From positions 1 through 35,909 of the IMG/VR virus record IMGVR_UViG_3300028630_000004: DNA of 35,909 bases; one strand, written 5' to 3'. Of this stretch, positions 2,774 to 30,116 are shown one piece after another (within the stretch, counting starts at the first letter, position 1; every line of letters starts with the position of its first letter). The notes beneath the pieces were generated by a model. That model was given only the letters and a program-made list of their open reading frames with translations, was not told the DNA's origin and did no database searches. A program made the translations under genes and the position numbers. The stretch is from a virus.

Positions 2774-5485
2774 ATGGTAAACCTGGGCGAACTCGTTTTC
2801 AGCATCGTCGCGGAGGACAGAGCGTCCGCGACGGTCGGCGCAACCGCGCAGAAGATCGCTGGGGCGGGCGTGGCAATCGGCGCCGGCATCGGTGTCGCCG
2901 GGGCAGCGGCAACGGCCCTGATCGACGCGAACCGGGGCATGGATGCGAGCTTCGCGACCACCGCCGCGTCGATGGGACTGCCGGCCGATGCCGTGAAGGA
3001 GCTGGCCCGCTCCCTCCAGTCCGTCGACAGCCCGATCGAAGAGGTTGCGGCGACCCTCGACATCCTCGCCCGCGGCGGGATGACGAACGTCGACAGCATG
3101 GGCGCGACCGCGTCGGCGTTCGACACCCTCGCGGACGCGACCGGGCAGAACGCCGACGCCCTGACGGATGCGATGGTGCCGGCGTTCAACGCTCTCGGGA
3201 TCGAGCTCGAGAAGGCGCCTGCATACGTCGACGGGCTCGCGGTCATGTTCCGTAAGTCGAACGTGGACCTCGGCGACTTCTCGACGATGATGACCCGCAT
3301 GGGCCCGGACCTCGGCGAGATGGGCATGGGGCTCACGGATGTCGAGGCGATCCTGATGAGCTTCGCCGACCGGGGCATCACGGGCCGCAAGGCAACGACC
3401 GAACTCACCGAGGCGATCAACGCGGCCGACGGGGACATCTCGAAGTTCTACGACTCGATCGGGCTGACCGAGGGCGAGCTGCAGGCCTACGGGGCGCAGG
3501 TCTCGAACGTTGCCGGCACGGCGCAGGAGTTCGCGGACGCGCAGAACTCGCAGTTCGGGACGATGGATAAGTTCGCGTTCGAGATCACCAAGCTCAAGCA
3601 GGGGCTCGGCGACGTCCTCAAGCCGTTCGAGGGCGTGGCGTCCGCGGCGATGGTGGTCGGCCCGGCGATCGCGATGGTCGTGCCCGCGGCCGTCTCGCTT
3701 GCAGGGGCCATCGGTGCCGGCGGCGGGCTCGCGGCCGTGGTCGGCGGGCTCAGTGCGACGGTAATGGGCGCCGCGGGTGCTCTCGCGGCGTTCCTCGCGC
3801 CGCTCATCGCGCCGATCGCGGTGATCGCCGCCGTGGTCGCGGGGCTCTACCTCCTGAACAAGCAGTTTAACTTTGTCGGCGGGATCGTCGAATGGCTCGG
3901 CGGGGTCTTCGAGGGCTTCGCGTCGTGGCTCGGCGACACGTTCGGCCCGATCATCGACGGCGTGATCGGCTTTGTCGGCGAGCTCTTCGGCGAGATGGAA
4001 GACGGCGAGGGGCCGATCGAGATGGTCCTCGGGCTCTTCAAAGACCTCGGGGATGTCGCGCTCAGGGTCGGCGGGTTCATCGGCAGCGTGCTCGGCCCGG
4101 CGATCCAGGCCGTCGCGACGTGGATCGGCGAGACGCTCGGCCCCGCCATCAAGGGCGTGGTCGGGTTCTTCGGCGACCTGTGGGAGGAGGTGAACAAAGC
4201 CGGCGGCGTCTTCGAGCGCGCGCGCGATGTCATCGTTGCCGCGTGGAACGTGATCGCCAGCCTCTTCGGGGGCGGTGATGGGAACGGCGTGGTCGTGGCC
4301 ATCAAGGGGCTGTGGGACGCCGTCCTCGCCTACGTGCCTGTGGCGTGGGGCTCCATCATCCAGGCCGTCGGCACGGCGCTCGTCGCCCTCGGGACGTGGA
4401 TCCTGACCAACGGCCCGCCGCTCGTCGTCGCGGCGATGCAGGCGATATGGACCGCGATCACGGTCACGATCCCTACGGCGTGGGCGGCGATACAGACGGC
4501 CGTCGCGACGGCCGCGGGGCTGATCTGGACCTGGTTATCGACCGAAGGCGTCCGGCTCGCAGGTGCGGCCGTGGCGTCGATCTGGACGTGGATCCAGGGC
4601 GCGGTTCCGGCCGCGTGGTCGGCAATACAGGCGGCGGTCGTCGCGGCGGCTCAGGCCATCTGGGCGTGGCTCACGGGCGAAGGGAAGGCCGGCGCGGACA
4701 CGGCGGTTAAGTCGATCTGGTCCACCATCGCGGGGGCCGTCCCGGACGCGTGGAAGGCGATCATGGCCGCCGTGCTCGCGGCAGCGCGGGCGATCTGGTC
4801 GTGGCTCTCCGGTGGTGGTGCGGGCGAGGCGAAGAGCGCCATCGGGGCCGCGTGGTCGGCGATCGCGGGGGCCGTCCCGGACGCATGGAAGGCAATACAG
4901 GCGGCGGTCGAGTCGGCGGCGCGCCGCGTCTGGAACGCGGCAAAGGAGATCCTCGGCAAGCCGATCGAGATGGTCGTCACGACCATCCAGCGCACGGTTG
5001 AAGAGGTCGTGCAGGGGGCGACCACCTTCCTCGGCGGTGGCGGCTCGAGCGGCACGACCTACTCCCCGAGCAACGTCGTTTCCGACGAGAAGCGGTACGA
5101 CAGCGACGGCGTCCAGGTCGGGGGGAACTCGTCGAGGAGCTATTACGGCGATTACATCTACAGCCCGGACGGCCACAAGATCGGCCGGTACATCGGCGGC
5201 AAGGCGACGTACTACCACTCGGGGGGCATCGCCGAGAATGAGCAGCTTGCAGTCCTCCTCAAGAACGAGCGCGTTCTGTCGCCGGCACAGACGAAGGAGT
5301 ACGACGCCGGGCTGTTGTCGGCCGTGCAGGCGCTCGCGGCGAAGATCGACCAGCTCGGCGGCTCCGGTGGCGGTGACGTGATCGTTCACGGCGACGTCAA
5401 GCTCTCCGAGGACTACTCATACGACCGCTTCCGCGAGGATGTCGGGCGCTGGAAGTCGAGCCGGATCGCGAAGGGGGTGCTCTGA
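2774..5485 (+). CDS. Tape measure protein
   Basis: 903 aa, Ala/Gly-rich with hydrophobic stretches and internal ~45-aa W-rich tandem repeats. Canonical position. Confidence 0.85.
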   Translation: MVNLGELVFSIVAEDRASATVGATAQKIAGAGVAIGAGIGVAGAAATALIDANRGMDASFATTAASMGLPADAVKELARSLQSVDSPIEEVAATLDILARGGMTNVDSMGATASAFDTLADATGQNADALTDAMVPAFNALGIELEKAPAYVDGLAVMFRKSNVDLGDFSTMMTRMGPDLGEMGMGLTDVEAILMSFADRGITGRKATTELTEAINAADGDISKFYDSIGLTEGELQAYGAQVSNVAGTAQEFADAQNSQFGTMDKFAFEITKLKQGLGDVLKPFEGVASAAMVVGPAIAMVVPAAVSLAGAIGAGGGLAAVVGGLSATVMGAAGALAAFLAPLIAPIAVIAAVVAGLYLLNKQFNFVGGIVEWLGGVFEGFASWLGDTFGPIIDGVIGFVGELFGEMEDGEGPIEMVLGLFKDLGDVALRVGGFIGSVLGPAIQAVATWIGETLGPAIKGVVGFFGDLWEEVNKAGGVFERARDVIVAAWNVIASLFGGGDGNGVVVAIKGLWDAVLAYVPVAWGSIIQAVGTALVALGTWILTNGPPLVVAAMQAIWTAITVTIPTAWAAIQTAVATAAGLIWTWLSTEGVRLAGAAVASIWTWIQGAVPAAWSAIQAAVVAAAQAIWAWLTGEGKAGADTAVKSIWSTIAGAVPDAWKAIMAAVLAAARAIWSWLSGGGAGEAKSAIGAAWSAIAGAVPDAWKAIQAAVESAARRVWNAAKEILGKPIEMVVTTIQRTVEEVVQGATTFLGGGGSSGTTYSPSNVVSDEKRYDSDGVQVGGNSSRSYYGDYIYSPDGHKIGRYIGGKATYYHSGGIAENEQLAVLLKNERVLSPAQTKEYDAGLLSAVQALAAKIDQLGGSGGGDVIVHGDVKLSEDYSYDRFREDVGRWKSSRIAKGVL
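4430..4960 (+). repeat. Four tandem ~135-nt (45-aa) repeats inside the tape measure gene
   Basis: The repeated peptide is (S/A)IW(T/S)xIxGAVPxAWxAIQAAVxxAAxxIWxWL. The exact 20-mer ggcaatacaggcggcggtcg occurs at 4621 and 4891 (270 nt = 2 x 135). Confidence 0.8.
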
Positions 5486-26407: not shown

Positions 26408-26960
26408 CCCCGACCCCGCCGCGATGCGGGCCGCCTACGAGGCCGGCAAGAGCATCGCCACCGTCGGGAGGGAGTTCGGTATCAGCAAGGACCGGGCCCG
26501 CCGGATCCTCCGCGATGCCGGCACGGTCTTCCGCCCGCCGAACGGCGGCACGACGCGGGAGATGCAAACGAACAGCGCCGAGCGGGCTGCGCGGGTGCTC
26601 GTCGTCCTGGGGCTCATGCTCAAGGGCATCGACCGGAACGCGATCCACCGGCACGGGAACGAGGTGCTCGGGTGGGACGTCGAGCCGCGCACCATTGCGG
26701 CATACATGGCCGACGCCCGCGCCGAGGTCCGCGCCCGGTACGCCGACGAGGCCGAGACGCTCGCCGCGATGGCCGACGCGAGAGACGACTATGCCCGGCA
26801 GCGGGCCCTCGCCGTGGACGACGTGAAGACGTTTCACGCGGTCAATGTCGAGGCCAACAAACGGCACGGGCTGTACGCGGCGGCGAAGCTGGAGCACTCG
26901 GGAAACGTCACCTGGCAGGAGCTGATCGAGGTTGCCACAGGCGAGCCCGCGGACGAGTGA
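26391..26960 (+). CDS. terS: Terminase small subunit (HTH)
   Basis: N-terminal HTH AYEAGKSIATVGREFGISKDRARRIL. 189 aa, immediately upstream of the large terminase. Confidence 0.55.
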   Translation: MPGSSDPDPAAMRAAYEAGKSIATVGREFGISKDRARRILRDAGTVFRPPNGGTTREMQTNSAERAARVLVVLGLMLKGIDRNAIHRHGNEVLGWDVEPRTIAAYMADARAEVRARYADEAETLAAMADARDDYARQRALAVDDVKTFHAVNVEANKRHGLYAAAKLEHSGNVTWQELIEVATGEPADE

Positions 26961-26973
26961 CGCCCGGGCCGCG

Positions 26974-28368
26974 ATGGTCCGCGCGCAGAGCGATCCGGCG
27001 TGGTGGGTCTCGAGCGTGCTCGGCAACACCCTCTTGCCGAAGCAGGTCGAGATCATCGAGTCCGTCCGCGACCACCGCGAGACGGCCGTCAAGTCCTGCC
27101 ACGCGGCCGGTAAGTCGTTCACCGCCGCGAACGTCGCGCTCTGGTGGCTGTTCAACCATCGGCACTCGATTGTCATCACCACCGCCCCGACCGACCGGCA
27201 GGTGCGCGGCATTTTGTGGAAGGAGATCCGCACCGGCCACCAGCGCGCCCGGGTGCCGCTCGGTGGAACCCTGCTGAGTCAGGAGCTCAAGCTCGATAAC
27301 GACTGGTGGGCGTGGGGCTTCACGGCGCCCGGGTACGACCCCGACCGCTTCCAGGGCTTCCACGCCATCCACACGCTCGTCATCGTGGACGAGGCGAGCG
27401 GGGTGACGGAGGACATTTACGACGCCATCGACGGCGTGCTGACGGCCGACGAGTCCCGGCTCCTGATGATCGGCAACCCGACCAACCCGAGCGGCCGGTT
27501 CGCAAAGGCGTTCAAGACGCCCGGGATCGCGAAAGTCTCGATCAGCGCCTTCGATACGCCGAACTTCACGACGTTCGGCATCACCGAAGCGGACATCGCC
27601 GCCGGCGCGTGGGAGCAGAAGATCACGGGCCCGCTCCCGAACCCCTACCTCGTCACCCCGCGGTGGGTCGCCGACCGCTACAAGCGGTGGGGCCCGGACT
27701 CGGCGATGTACGGCGCGAAGGTCGATGCCCGCTTCCCCGCGGCCGGGAACGACACCCTGATCCCGCTCCACTGGATCGAGGCCGCGGTCGCCCGAACGCT
27801 CGTGCCATCGGCCCCGTCCGAGCTCGGCGTCGATGTCGCCCGGTTCGGCTCCGACGAGACGGTGATCATGCACCGCGCCGGCCCCGTCGCCCGGACGCTC
27901 AAGGTGATCCCGATGAGCGACACGATGGAGACGACCGGCCACGTCGTGCAGGCTATCGCGGCCGTCAAAGCACTCGCCGCAAAGGTCGATGCGGTCGGCG
28001 TCGGCGCGGGCGTGTACGACCGGCTCAAGGAGCTCAAGCAGCCGGCCCGCGAGATGCAGAGCGGACAGGCCGCGAAGGATCCCGAGCGGTACGCGAACGC
28101 CCGCGCCGAGTGGTGGTGGGGGCTCCGCGAGCGATTCGAGGTCGGCGACATCGACATCGAGAACGACGAGACGCTGATCGAGCAGCTCGCCGACCTGCGA
28201 TACAAGGTGAACTCGCGGGGCCAGATCCTCATCGAATCGAAAGAGGACATGAAGAAGCGCGGCGTCGGCAGCCCCGACCGGGCTGACGCGCTGATGCTCG
28301 TTTTCGGCACGCCGAGCGGACCGGCTCCCGGCCGGTTCGGCGTCGTCTCAGGAGTTCGATCATGGTAG
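26974..28368 (+). CDS. terL: Terminase large subunit
   Basis: Walker A-like SCHAAGKSF, Walker B LVIVDEASG, and a C-terminal nuclease-like half. The ORF is open from 26932; ATG 26974 avoids overlapping terS. Confidence 0.9.
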   Translation: MVRAQSDPAWWVSSVLGNTLLPKQVEIIESVRDHRETAVKSCHAAGKSFTAANVALWWLFNHRHSIVITTAPTDRQVRGILWKEIRTGHQRARVPLGGTLLSQELKLDNDWWAWGFTAPGYDPDRFQGFHAIHTLVIVDEASGVTEDIYDAIDGVLTADESRLLMIGNPTNPSGRFAKAFKTPGIAKVSISAFDTPNFTTFGITEADIAAGAWEQKITGPLPNPYLVTPRWVADRYKRWGPDSAMYGAKVDARFPAAGNDTLIPLHWIEAAVARTLVPSAPSELGVDVARFGSDETVIMHRAGPVARTLKVIPMSDTMETTGHVVQAIAAVKALAAKVDAVGVGAGVYDRLKELKQPAREMQSGQAAKDPERYANARAEWWWGLRERFEVGDIDIENDETLIEQLADLRYKVNSRGQILIESKEDMKKRGVGSPDRADALMLVFGTPSGPAPGRFGVVSGVRSW

Positions 28369-30116
28369 CACGAATCATACAGGGCGATTGCCTCGACGTG
28401 ATGCGCGAAATGGACGCCGGCAGCGTCGACGCCGTCGTGACCGATCCGCCGTATGGCCTGAACTTCATGGCCCGCGACTGGGATCACGGCGTGCCGGGCG
28501 AACGCTACTGGATCGAGGCGTTGCGGGTTGCGAAGCCCGGAGCGCATCTGCTCGCCTTCGGCGGGACGCGGACCTTTCACCGGCTGACCTGCGCGATCGA
28601 AGATGCCGGATGGGAGATCCGCGACTGCCTCGGCTGGATCTACGCTTCTGGATTCCCGAAGTCGCTCGACGTCTCGAAGGCGATCGATAAGATGGCGGGG
28701 GCCGAGCGCACCGAACAGATCGGCGTTTATATCGAGCCCGACGGGTGCCGGAGATCGTCGTTTGCCAACGCGACCGGCAACTGCTACGGGCGCGATGGAC
28801 GCCCACGCGAAAAGCCGATCACCGCCCCGGCAACCGGCGCCGCGAAGAAGTGGTCGGGGTGGGGCACGGCCCTGAAGCCGGCAGTCGAGTACGTCATCAT
28901 GGCGCAGAAGCCGATTGGAGGTGAAAGGGAACAGTATATAACAGTTGGGAACCTATATAAAGTAGAGGTTCGGCTGTGGTTACTGTTGTGTGCGAACGGT
29001 GCGGGCGAGAGTTCGACGTTAAGCCCGGACGAGTACGGCGAGGCGTTCGCTTCTGCTCAATGGACTGCCGCCGACGTGTCCAGTACACTGGCCGATTTGT
29101 CCGATCTGACGGATACGTCGCGCTTAAGGTCGGCGATAAGTTCGACCTTGAACACCGTGTCGTCATGGCGGAGCACTTGGGAAGAAGCCTTGAGCCGTGG
29201 GAGCAGGTTCATCACCGAAACGGCGACCGGGCCGATAATCGACTCGAAAACCTTGAACTCCTCAGCGTCGGCGCTCACACCGCAAGACATCATCCGGGCC
29301 GCGATTCTTCGACCTGGCTCATGGTGGAGTGCCATACCTGCGGCAAACATTTTGAACGCCGCCGCCACGAGGATGCGCGGCACCCTCGACATTTCTGCTC
29401 TAGAGAGTGCTATCGAAAAGGGGCACATCTCACGCCCGGGCGGTCTCGACCCGACCGTCTCGTTTAGGCCGATCATCCTCGCCCGCGCACCGCTCACCGG
29501 CACCGTCGCCGCGACCGTCTGTGAGCACGGGACCGGAGCCCTGAACATCGACGGATGCCGGATCGGGACAGATGACGACCGCGCGCGCCCTCCCGGCAGA
29601 ACCTCGGCGAACACATGGGATCTTTCAGGGCGCACCGAACCCTCTACCTCACATCCCGCAGGCCGATGGCCGGCGAACCTGATCCACGACGGCAGCGACG
29701 AGGTGCTCGAGCTGTTCCCGATGCAGTCGGGCGGCGGGCAACCGAAGCGGCGAGGCGGCGACACCGAGCGCAACGCCTTCGGTGACTTTGCCGGTGGGGA
29801 TGCTACGCCCGGCGTCGGCCGCTCGTCCGGTTCGGCGTCCCGGTTCTTTTACTGCGCTAAAGCTTCGAGAGCGGAGCGCGGCGAGGGCAACGTCCACCCG
29901 ACGGTGAAGCCCCTCGCGCTCATGCGCTACCTCTGCCGGTTGATCACACCACCCGGCGGGCTCGTCCTCGACCCGTTCGCCGGCTCGGGTTCGACCCTGA
30001 TCGCCGCCGTTGCCGAGGGCTTCGAGGCGGTCGGGATTGAGAGAGAAGCGGCATACGCTGAGATCGCCCGGCAACGGTTCGGGCCGCTCGACCAATTCGC
30101 TGAGGCTACATCATGA
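28362..30116 (+). CDS. N4/N6 DNA methyltransferase (DPPY, beta-class order) interrupted by a ~546-nt insertion that its reading frame nevertheless passes through
   Basis: [11 protein letters not shown] (motif IV); [19 protein letters not shown]; then [34 protein letters not shown]; [13 protein letters not shown]; [11 protein letters not shown] (motif I). The middle 182 codons look non-protein-like. Confidence 0.85.
28923..29468 (+). mobile_element. Lower-GC insertion cassette carrying an HNH homing-endonuclease gene with its own TATA-like and SD signals
   Basis: GC drops sharply at about 28915. Signals are cagtatataacag, cctatataaag and gaggt 8 nt before GTG 28976. Flanked by duplicated MTase motif copies at 28884-28922 and 29463-29504. 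Confidence 0.75.
28976..29467 (+). CDS. HNH homing endonuclease with flanking Zn-ribbon motifs
   Basis: [62 protein letters not shown] is a classic HNH. CERCG...FCSMDC and CHTCG...FCSRECY lie on either side. It reads in a different frame from the host MTase. Confidence 0.85.

Follow-up and report, generated by a model that had tools for sequence, protein, structure and literature searches.

How can a gene for an HNH endonuclease lie inside a gene for a DNA methyltransferase, and what becomes of the host gene? The question is raised by the IMG/VR virus record IMGVR_UViG_3300028630_000004, of which positions 1 to 35,909 were analyzed (hereafter the window, 35,909 nucleotides (nt) long). An initial annotation of this DNA had noticed an HNH cassette nested out of frame within a methylase gene, flanked by a duplicated methylase motif and with the methylase frame still open. 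These observations hold: the HNH gene matches known profiles, both motif copies are present (the first within 28875–28922, the second ending at 29504), and the methylase open reading frame (ORF) runs across the insert without a stop. We conclude, with a probability of about 0.8, that the window element is a 'hidden HNH' homing cassette of the type first seen in the mycobacteriophage ShiLan, and that it is tolerated by read-through.

The host ORF matches Pfam N6_N4_Mtase (PF01555; 4.6e-26), and an AlphaFold2 model of the whole protein resembles CcrM, TTHA0409, M.BceJIV and RsrI. Uninterrupted relatives are found among its protein matches, the best local alignment being that of P0007 (96% identical over 37% of the query), with P0030, P0011 and others similar. 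Protein and DNA alignment with P0007, P0030 and the contigs L074 and L075 fixes the insertion point at the W-E codons of a conserved strand motif, KPAWEPIILAR(K/A)P, whose empty-site DNA reads AAGCCGGCATGGGAGCCGATCATCCTC. The cassette itself has 195 codons and the net gain is 193 codons, so that the insert, put at ~546 nt or 182 codons by the initial annotation, in fact measures 585 nt (Table 1). The alignment column of the cassette in the window is identical to that in the mycobacteriophages Murica and ShiLan and in others. Three parts can be told apart in the cassette, namely a recoded substitute for the strand motif (copy 1), an AT-richer leader with a -10-like box and a Shine-Dalgarno sequence, and the HNH gene, and only 92 nt of the whole lie outside the HNH ORF. 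The lower guanine-cytosine (GC) content noticed initially is evident as well, with 0.48–0.62 across 28900–29450 versus 0.65–0.73 in the flanks.

Table 1. Coordinates of the methylase gene, the inserted cassette and their parts in the window.
Feature	Positions	Strand	Description
Methylase ORF	28362–30116	+	584 amino acids (aa); beta-class N6/N4 DNA methyltransferase, host gene of the cassette, reads straight through
Native N-terminal catalytic half	28362–28883	+	DPPY at aa 28–31; ends in ...GWGTALKPA; aligned with uninterrupted P0007, P0030, P0011 and contigs L074 and L075
Mobile cassette	28884–29468	+	585 nt in place of TGGGAG (W-E codons); methylase frame stays open
Copy 1	28884–28913	+	Cassette-borne, recoded substitute for WEPIILAR(A/K)P, read in the methylase frame
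-10-like hexamer TATAAC	28937–28942	+	39 nt upstream of the HNH start, at the family-conserved TATAAT position
Shine-Dalgarno-like GAGG	28965–28968	+	7 nt upstream of the HNH GTG
HNH endonuclease gene	28976–29467	+	163 aa; GTG start; TAG stop at 29465–29467
Copy 2	29469–29504	+	Native methylase sequence PIILARAP...; DNA identical to the uninterrupted allele
Native C-terminal part	29469–30116	+	GTGALNIDG, variable target-recognition region, HPTVKP, S-adenosylmethionine (AdoMet) motif DPFAGSGST

The nested gene begins one base ahead of a methylase codon boundary and is thus out of frame with its host. Its product matches Pfam HNH_3 at 1.6e-11 and 17 PHROG families, mostly annotated as HNH endonuclease, and the endonuclease call therefore passes the profile check that had been suggested for it; a search of the HNH profile against PDB sequences gave no match at E up to 0.01. 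The HNH core is flanked on both sides by zinc-finger-like pairs of the form CxxC...C...C, of which the CxxC is invariant at both ends in the family alignment. The ratio of nonsynonymous to synonymous substitution rates (dN/dS) in the HNH frame is 0.11–0.33 in 12 of 13 family pairs, which points to purifying selection and a frame that encodes a working protein. The initial annotation had the HNH stop overlapping copy 2. The TAG does lie directly before PIILARAP, one base from the cassette end, but it sits in TTT AGG (F R; 29463–29468), and these codons are cassette-derived. The closest HNH pair joins the window gene with positions 2501–2992 of L011 (IMGVR_UViG_3300009773_000003), the window's closest relative; the two are 92% identical, and their differences cluster near residues 5–8 and 33–50.

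The host frame is open for a reason. In the window, the methylase frame over the HNH gene (+1) contains no stops while the third frame (+2) contains 10. We fetched 63 viral and 6 bacterial genome contigs that encode HNH relatives, and the host frame, one base downstream of the HNH frame, was open across the whole gene in all 40 nested loci, that is, in every locus with an HNH at least ~45% identical to a query, at HNH GC contents from 0.31 to 0.67. This open frame continues into the DPPY and FxGSG methylase motifs. The third frame holds 2–25 stops in the nested loci, and the equivalent frame of distant free-standing HNH relatives holds 2–18. Synonymous-codon shuffles within each gene, a conservative test, led to an expectation of 0.2–4.5 stops per locus; of the 37 nested loci tested, 15 had a probability of finding none below 0.05, and in all five with a GC content of 0.46 or less it was at most 0.007. 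An open frame arising by chance in GC-rich DNA was considered and rejected, since the frame is open at GC 0.31–0.45 too. The open host frame is thus selected and not accidental. At the protein level, 95 of the best 120 matches to the window ORF carry the insertion, with a KP-to-GTGALN distance of 208–240 residues versus 23 in the uninterrupted ones, and in these 95 the catalytic and AdoMet motifs are all intact. Considering that a spliced intron needs no open frame, and that no intron model matched, read-through is the best-supported fate of the insert.

The duplicated motif points the same way. The DNA of the window is almost base-for-base that of L074 from 29469 onward, and hence copy 2 is native and copy 1 belongs to the inserted block. 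The initial suggestion that one copy travels with the element is borne out, since copy 1 is found in the cassette of every family member and copy 2 is the DNA of the uninterrupted allele. Copy 1 follows the consensus KP[AS]xE-x-[VIL]-x-x-A-x-K-P, in which E, A and K are invariant in 95 of 95 insert-bearing proteins and the final P is kept in 90; as no HNH codons overlap copy 1, what is conserved is a methylase-like strand that forms part of the cassette. The consensus of copy 2 is P[IVC][IV][MVL]ARKPL, and the preceding glutamate position is D in 39 proteins, E in 34, R in 8 and others in the remainder, with R in the window; the frequent replacement of this glutamate is due to its overlap with the last codons and the stop of the HNH gene. 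In an AlphaFold2 model of the full protein (80-sequence alignment), residues 171–182, including copy 1, form a beta strand in the sheet. We infer that the cassette may bring a replacement strand, so that the insertion would in effect lie at the boundary preceding the target-recognition region, and that copy 1 is probably the structural strand. In a prophage of Kribbella qitaiheensis (L077, 2504–3016 and flanks), copy 2 is degenerate (GLPEYVKGGPLTVAGNV) and copy 1 intact (KPAHEPVVCAMKP).

Searches with tblastn against phage genomes showed the same nested arrangement in Cylindrospermopsis phage Cr-LKS3 (HNH 65% identical) and in the Mycobacterium phages ShiLan, Murica, MISSy, Pollywog, Bipolar, Filuzino, Starcevich, Mantra, Totinger and OwlsT2W, where the nested HNH is 47–50% identical (E 1e-33 to 1e-37; ShiLan, 49.7% and 7e-37). 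For ShiLan, Murica, Bipolar, Pollywog and Mantra, 96–99% of the query was covered. While these ten phage names appear in the match tables, eight mycobacteriophage loci were fetched, and in every phage with an annotated region fetched the HNH sits under a long ORF annotated as methylase or methyltransferase. The same architecture and site also occur in ~50 viral contigs and 4 bacterial genome contigs.

The distribution of the cassette bears signatures of mobility. Murica, with the cassette, and Buck, without it, are both Kostyavirus, share the gene order around the methylase and have nearly identical methylase ends; they differ by a 606-nt in-frame block and by strongly diverged stretches of ~160 nt to its left and ~330 nt to its right, which would be the pattern expected of co-conversion during homing. 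A similar presence and absence among close relatives involves the window itself. The window and L011 carry the cassette and L075 does not, all in the same context of large-terminase (TerL), methylase and portal genes, and because the TerL 3' end and the portal 5' end are common to the window and L075, the same phage lineage exists with and without the cassette. Besides, in pairs of metagenomic members the cassettes have diverged by 0.06–0.2 substitutions per site versus a dS of 1–2 in the host methylase halves of the same pairs; the cassette has therefore moved between diverged alleles and is far younger than the host genes.

This architecture has been published before. The 'ShiLan domain' of mycobacteriophage methylases, known from gp65 of ShiLan and relatives, dates from a 2023 description (PMC9957025); a 2025 study identified it as an 'actively homing insertion element' whose HNH endonuclease is 'hidden' out of frame (PMC11855218). 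The latter study noted the stop-free host frame without intron or intein signatures, a predicted looped-out structure, and the resemblance of the first 11 inserted residues to the 11 residues after the site, and for the host-frame peptide it reported no more than 9 homologues, which were all from phages. With the window, a known kind of element has thus been found again, in a distant member; what is new here is the far broader distribution, the quantified selection on the open frame, the conserved expression signals and the invariant strand motif borne by the cassette. Other mobile inserts of these mycobacteriophage methylases are already known (PMC9957025, PMC11855218). Among the loci fetched, the methylases of ShiLan (L007) and Starcevich (L010) have an intein-like block (CLT...ITGN/S) after WLYG, that of Mantra (L008) an in-frame LAGLIDG-type block near the N-terminus, and OwlsT2W (L006) and ShiLan a displaced C-terminal piece annotated as separate genes.

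The leader of the cassette suggests how the HNH protein could be expressed. A TATAAT-like hexamer (at most one mismatch) is present in 21 of 40 loci versus 5% at random positions, perfectly so in 12 of the 40, mostly exactly 39 nt upstream of the HNH start and in several cases with an upstream TG; a Shine-Dalgarno-like motif lies 4–16 nt upstream of the start in 27 of 40 loci versus 10% at random positions. Of the two TATA-like boxes and the Shine-Dalgarno sequence initially proposed for the window, TATAAC stands at the family-conserved position and GAGG is present, but the second TATA lacks conservation in the family. In a generic scan for sigma-70 promoters and terminators, no promoter was called on the + strand, so that the putative promoter is suggested by its conservation in the family. 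The study of the mycobacteriophage elements reported no ribosome-binding site; as the HNH start it put forward a leaderless GTG located 18 nt inside the insertion, for a protein of 195 aa (PMC11855218). In six of the eight mycobacteriophage loci (L002, L004, L005, L006, L009 and L010) that GTG is followed by an in-frame TGA, and farther upstream the HNH frame is open only in ShiLan and Mantra; in the other six it is open only 45 nt upstream of the conserved GTG. The conserved start in these phages is this downstream GTG, which is preceded by GGAGGA and gives a protein of 169 aa.

The methylase gene of the window lies in a phage-like block of head genes, with a TerL gene at 26932–28368 (PHROG 2, 2.7e-38) upstream and a Mu-like portal gene from 30113 downstream. 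The methylase ATG overlaps the TerL stop at 28362–28368 (ATGGTAG), the methylase TGA overlaps the portal ATG at 30113–30116 (ATGA), and the three genes look translationally coupled. Some further observations concern the alleles of these genes. The methylases are mosaic: a block of ~45 aa after DPPYGLxFM in P0007, P0030 and P0095 is absent from the window (28470–28500), and the stretch before ITAPAT (window 28690–28830 compared with L074 and L075) is hypervariable, in sequence as well as in length, between alleles that are nearly identical elsewhere. In L011, an extra block at ~1400–1700 of a terminase-like gene ends in ...FFANSILVHN/C and looks like the C-terminus of an intein; it has no counterpart in the window alignment. 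An Rfam scan of 12 related loci gave as its sole match an unrelated abiF RNA (39.5 bits, E 0.001) at 4823–4859 of L015, downstream of the methylase locus in this metagenomic viral contig.

Based on these features, we propose the following scheme. The HNH protein would be made from the cassette's own signals, and the predicted endonuclease would cut cassette-free methylase alleles at or near the DNA that codes for the strand motif; repair from a cassette-bearing genome would then copy the cassette in, which constitutes homing. The host gene would be neither split nor spliced, ribosomes would read through the cassette in the methylase frame, and the product would be a 584-aa methylase in which ~193 additional residues loop out after the last strand of the catalytic half and before the target-recognition region. 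Cassettes with stops in the host frame would be lost; as only stop-free ones would persist, the downstream half of the methylase and the coupled portal gene would stay expressed.

Several points weigh against this scheme. Between the window and L011, the HNH dN/dS is 0.79, on few substitutions, which could reflect relaxed selection, a change of specificity or small-number noise. Rfam can miss an unconventional ribozyme. The open frame could serve the avoidance of polar effects on coupled downstream genes and not methylase activity; with overlapping starts and stops, a premature methylase stop would also affect expression of the portal gene, and this offers another reason why the frame might be kept open. 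The dN/dS of the methylase flanks, 0.03–0.13, was rejected as decisive proof that the invaded methylases work, because the flanks are far older than the cassette and these low values mostly record the history before the invasion. In the AlphaFold2 model, copy 2, which is left disordered, and the target-recognition region have low confidence, with a predicted local distance difference test score (pLDDT) below 50. Finally, copy 2 is kept in nearly all members, which would be odd if copy 1 alone were structural, unless frequent homing restores the native sequence.

The initial annotation had left four outcomes for the host gene: a spliced intron, a split methylase, a methylase with an inserted segment, or a dead gene. 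The evidence favours an in-frame insertion, placed just before the target-recognition region, and disfavours the intron (Rfam, open frame) and the dead gene (copy 1 and the open frame are both deeply conserved). The HNH ORF could be carried by a self-splicing intron of an unconventional kind, whether group I-like or new, and guide-sequence interactions would then explain the duplicated motif. Phage group I introns often contain HNH genes, and the site is a highly conserved coding motif, as it is for introns; the resemblance of the 5' end of the insertion to the 3' exon has also been raised as a possible intron sign (PMC11855218). However, the check with group I/II intron models matched no family over the insert region (28600–29800, E up to 10) or in 12 related loci (E up to 0.1), RNAweasel and structure analyses in the literature gave negative results too, and the 92 nt outside the ORF leave no room for a ribozyme core. 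Efficient splicing, moreover, would not need a host frame that is stop-free in every member at GC 0.31–0.67, nor would it account for a copy 1 conserved at the amino-acid level, so that an intron appears very unlikely. The same open frame makes it scarcely credible that the gene is split into two reassembling polypeptides in the manner of Aeh1 NrdA-a and NrdA-b, with the HNH between them and a strand copy for each half. Split methyltransferases exist, and the duplicated motif would give each half a complete strand. Across 40 loci and 95 proteins, on the other hand, the cassette contains no methylase-frame stop, and we saw no conserved restart signal before copy 2; the analogy with the Aeh1 nrdA/mobE genes-in-pieces, drawn initially, thus fails for a gene that is unsplit. 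An intein was rejected as well: the endonuclease is in the wrong frame, the insert starts at V175 and ends in ...SFR followed by P, Hint blocks and splicing residues are missing, and the predicted fold is all-alpha.

The HNH protein might instead be domesticated and not selfish, as a partner of the methylase or of packaging, either as a terminase-associated HNH or within an overlapping-frame nuclease-methylase pair. Packaging HNH proteins occur beside terminases, the window gene lies between TerL and the portal gene, and the HNH has long co-occurred with one methylase family. Nevertheless, uninterrupted L075 has the same TerL and portal context, so that the lineage packages without the HNH; in Cr-LKS3 and the mycobacteriophages the methylase gene has early or replication genes around it. 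The cassette is also disjunctly distributed and of far more recent origin than its hosts. Domestication is therefore improbable in our view, and a packaging HNH of the HK97 gp74 type was rejected on account of the HNH-less allele L075 in the same context and of homologous cassettes in early or replication regions elsewhere. The methylase might also have been inactivated by the insertion, with the frame kept open for downstream translation and coupling or simply because the event is recent. Mycobacteriophage methylases are non-essential according to the literature, the methylase stop overlaps the portal start in the window, and the flank dN/dS cannot place selection after the invasion. Still, copy 1 mimics the strand motif, with E, A and K invariant and KP nearly so, across a family whose HNH identity falls to ~45%, a conservation that makes sense only if the read-through methylase matters. 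Together with the catalytic and AdoMet motifs intact in the 95 insert-bearing proteins, this renders a dead methylase highly improbable, and we retain the homing cassette tolerated by read-through as the best explanation.

A more speculative possibility, to which we give tentative consideration and which we judge doubtful, is that selection may maintain the ~180 residues encoded in the methylase frame across the HNH gene as a folded domain, all-alpha and with a new fold. For the insert alone (26 sequences), AlphaFold2 predicted seven helices with a mean pLDDT of 87 and a predicted template modelling score (pTM) of 0.80. Foldseek of this model against PDB and BFVD returned nothing below E 0.5, and the host-frame insert matched no PHROG or Pfam family, the Pfam matches of the full ORF being all methyltransferase families. 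At conserved codons, fourfold-degenerate third positions are less variable in the HNH gene than in the methylase flanks (entropy 1.41 versus 1.59–1.64, p = 0.0016), and some synonymous sites are frozen, such as HNH Leu93, which is CTT in 30 of 30 lineages and gives a host-frame Leu. Against a folded domain, the synonymous-site signal drops to p = 0.105 once stop-avoidance codons are removed, the host-frame dN/dS is 0.64–1.36, and the host-frame identity is 0.26–0.39 where the HNH identity is 0.46–0.63; covariation imposed by the HNH frame may mislead AlphaFold. If the domain were real, ~490 nt would encode two folded proteins in two frames, and the cassette's own beta-strand, copy 1, would let the extra domain emerge at a domain boundary and not inside a hairpin.

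Homing endonucleases have been taken to spare their host genes in three ways, by residing in a self-splicing intron, in an intein or between genes. The hidden-HNH elements suggest a fourth, in which the element remains in the protein and its own gene keeps the host frame open. This strategy is not confined to mycobacteriophages, since the same cassette occupies the same methylase site in a cyanophage, proteobacterial-type phages, prophages and many metagenomic viruses, over a twofold range of GC content. The family offers a natural system for long dual-coding regions and for the insertion tolerance of the methyltransferase fold. Since gene callers annotate a single long 'DNA methylase' and overlook the endonuclease, knowledge of these cassettes is useful for better annotation.

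Compared with known systems, the window element agrees most closely with the ShiLan domain, with which it shares the host gene family, the insertion site (KP[AS]x/E.../PI[IV]), the frame relation, a host frame free of stops, an HNH core flanked on either side by zinc-finger-like pairs, the HNH stop in the last bases of the insertion, the ~11 first inserted residues that mimic those after the site, and the disjunct distribution. It is shorter than the ShiLan type (195 versus 202 codons, with an HNH of 163 versus 169 aa) and differs in belonging to a non-actinophage, high-GC phage with the methylase between TerL and portal. The hidden HNH of Pacc40 gp60 (PMC11855218) likewise combines an out-of-frame endonuclease-like ORF with an open methylase frame, but, according to the published description, its methylase belongs to another family, the site is not the same and the ORFs are unrelated. 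Inteins that contain homing endonuclease domains resemble the element in being in frame, translated with the host protein and targeted to conserved motifs, whereas in the window the endonuclease is in another frame and no removal at the protein level is expected. HNH endonucleases of group I introns, such as I-HmuI, spread by cutting the empty allele of a conserved gene, as we propose for the window element, which differs in that its host frame stays open and no ribozyme, for which space is lacking, was detected. Free-standing homing endonucleases may also lie in host coding regions with their own expression signals, as do Aeh1 mobE in nrdA and T4 mobA between genes 39 and 60; there two ORFs are created, in contrast to the one continuous ORF of the window. 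Lastly, a mobile endonuclease ORF in the mitochondrial atp6 of Allomyces, said to have been described by Paquin, Laforest and Lang in 1994, reportedly carries a foreign copy of the C-terminus. As in the window, the mobile unit would bring a substitute for the host-gene segment that it displaces; in atp6, however, the carried copy reportedly replaces the end of the gene and leaves the resident copy a pseudogene, while in the window the carried copy is internal and the resident copy remains in frame.

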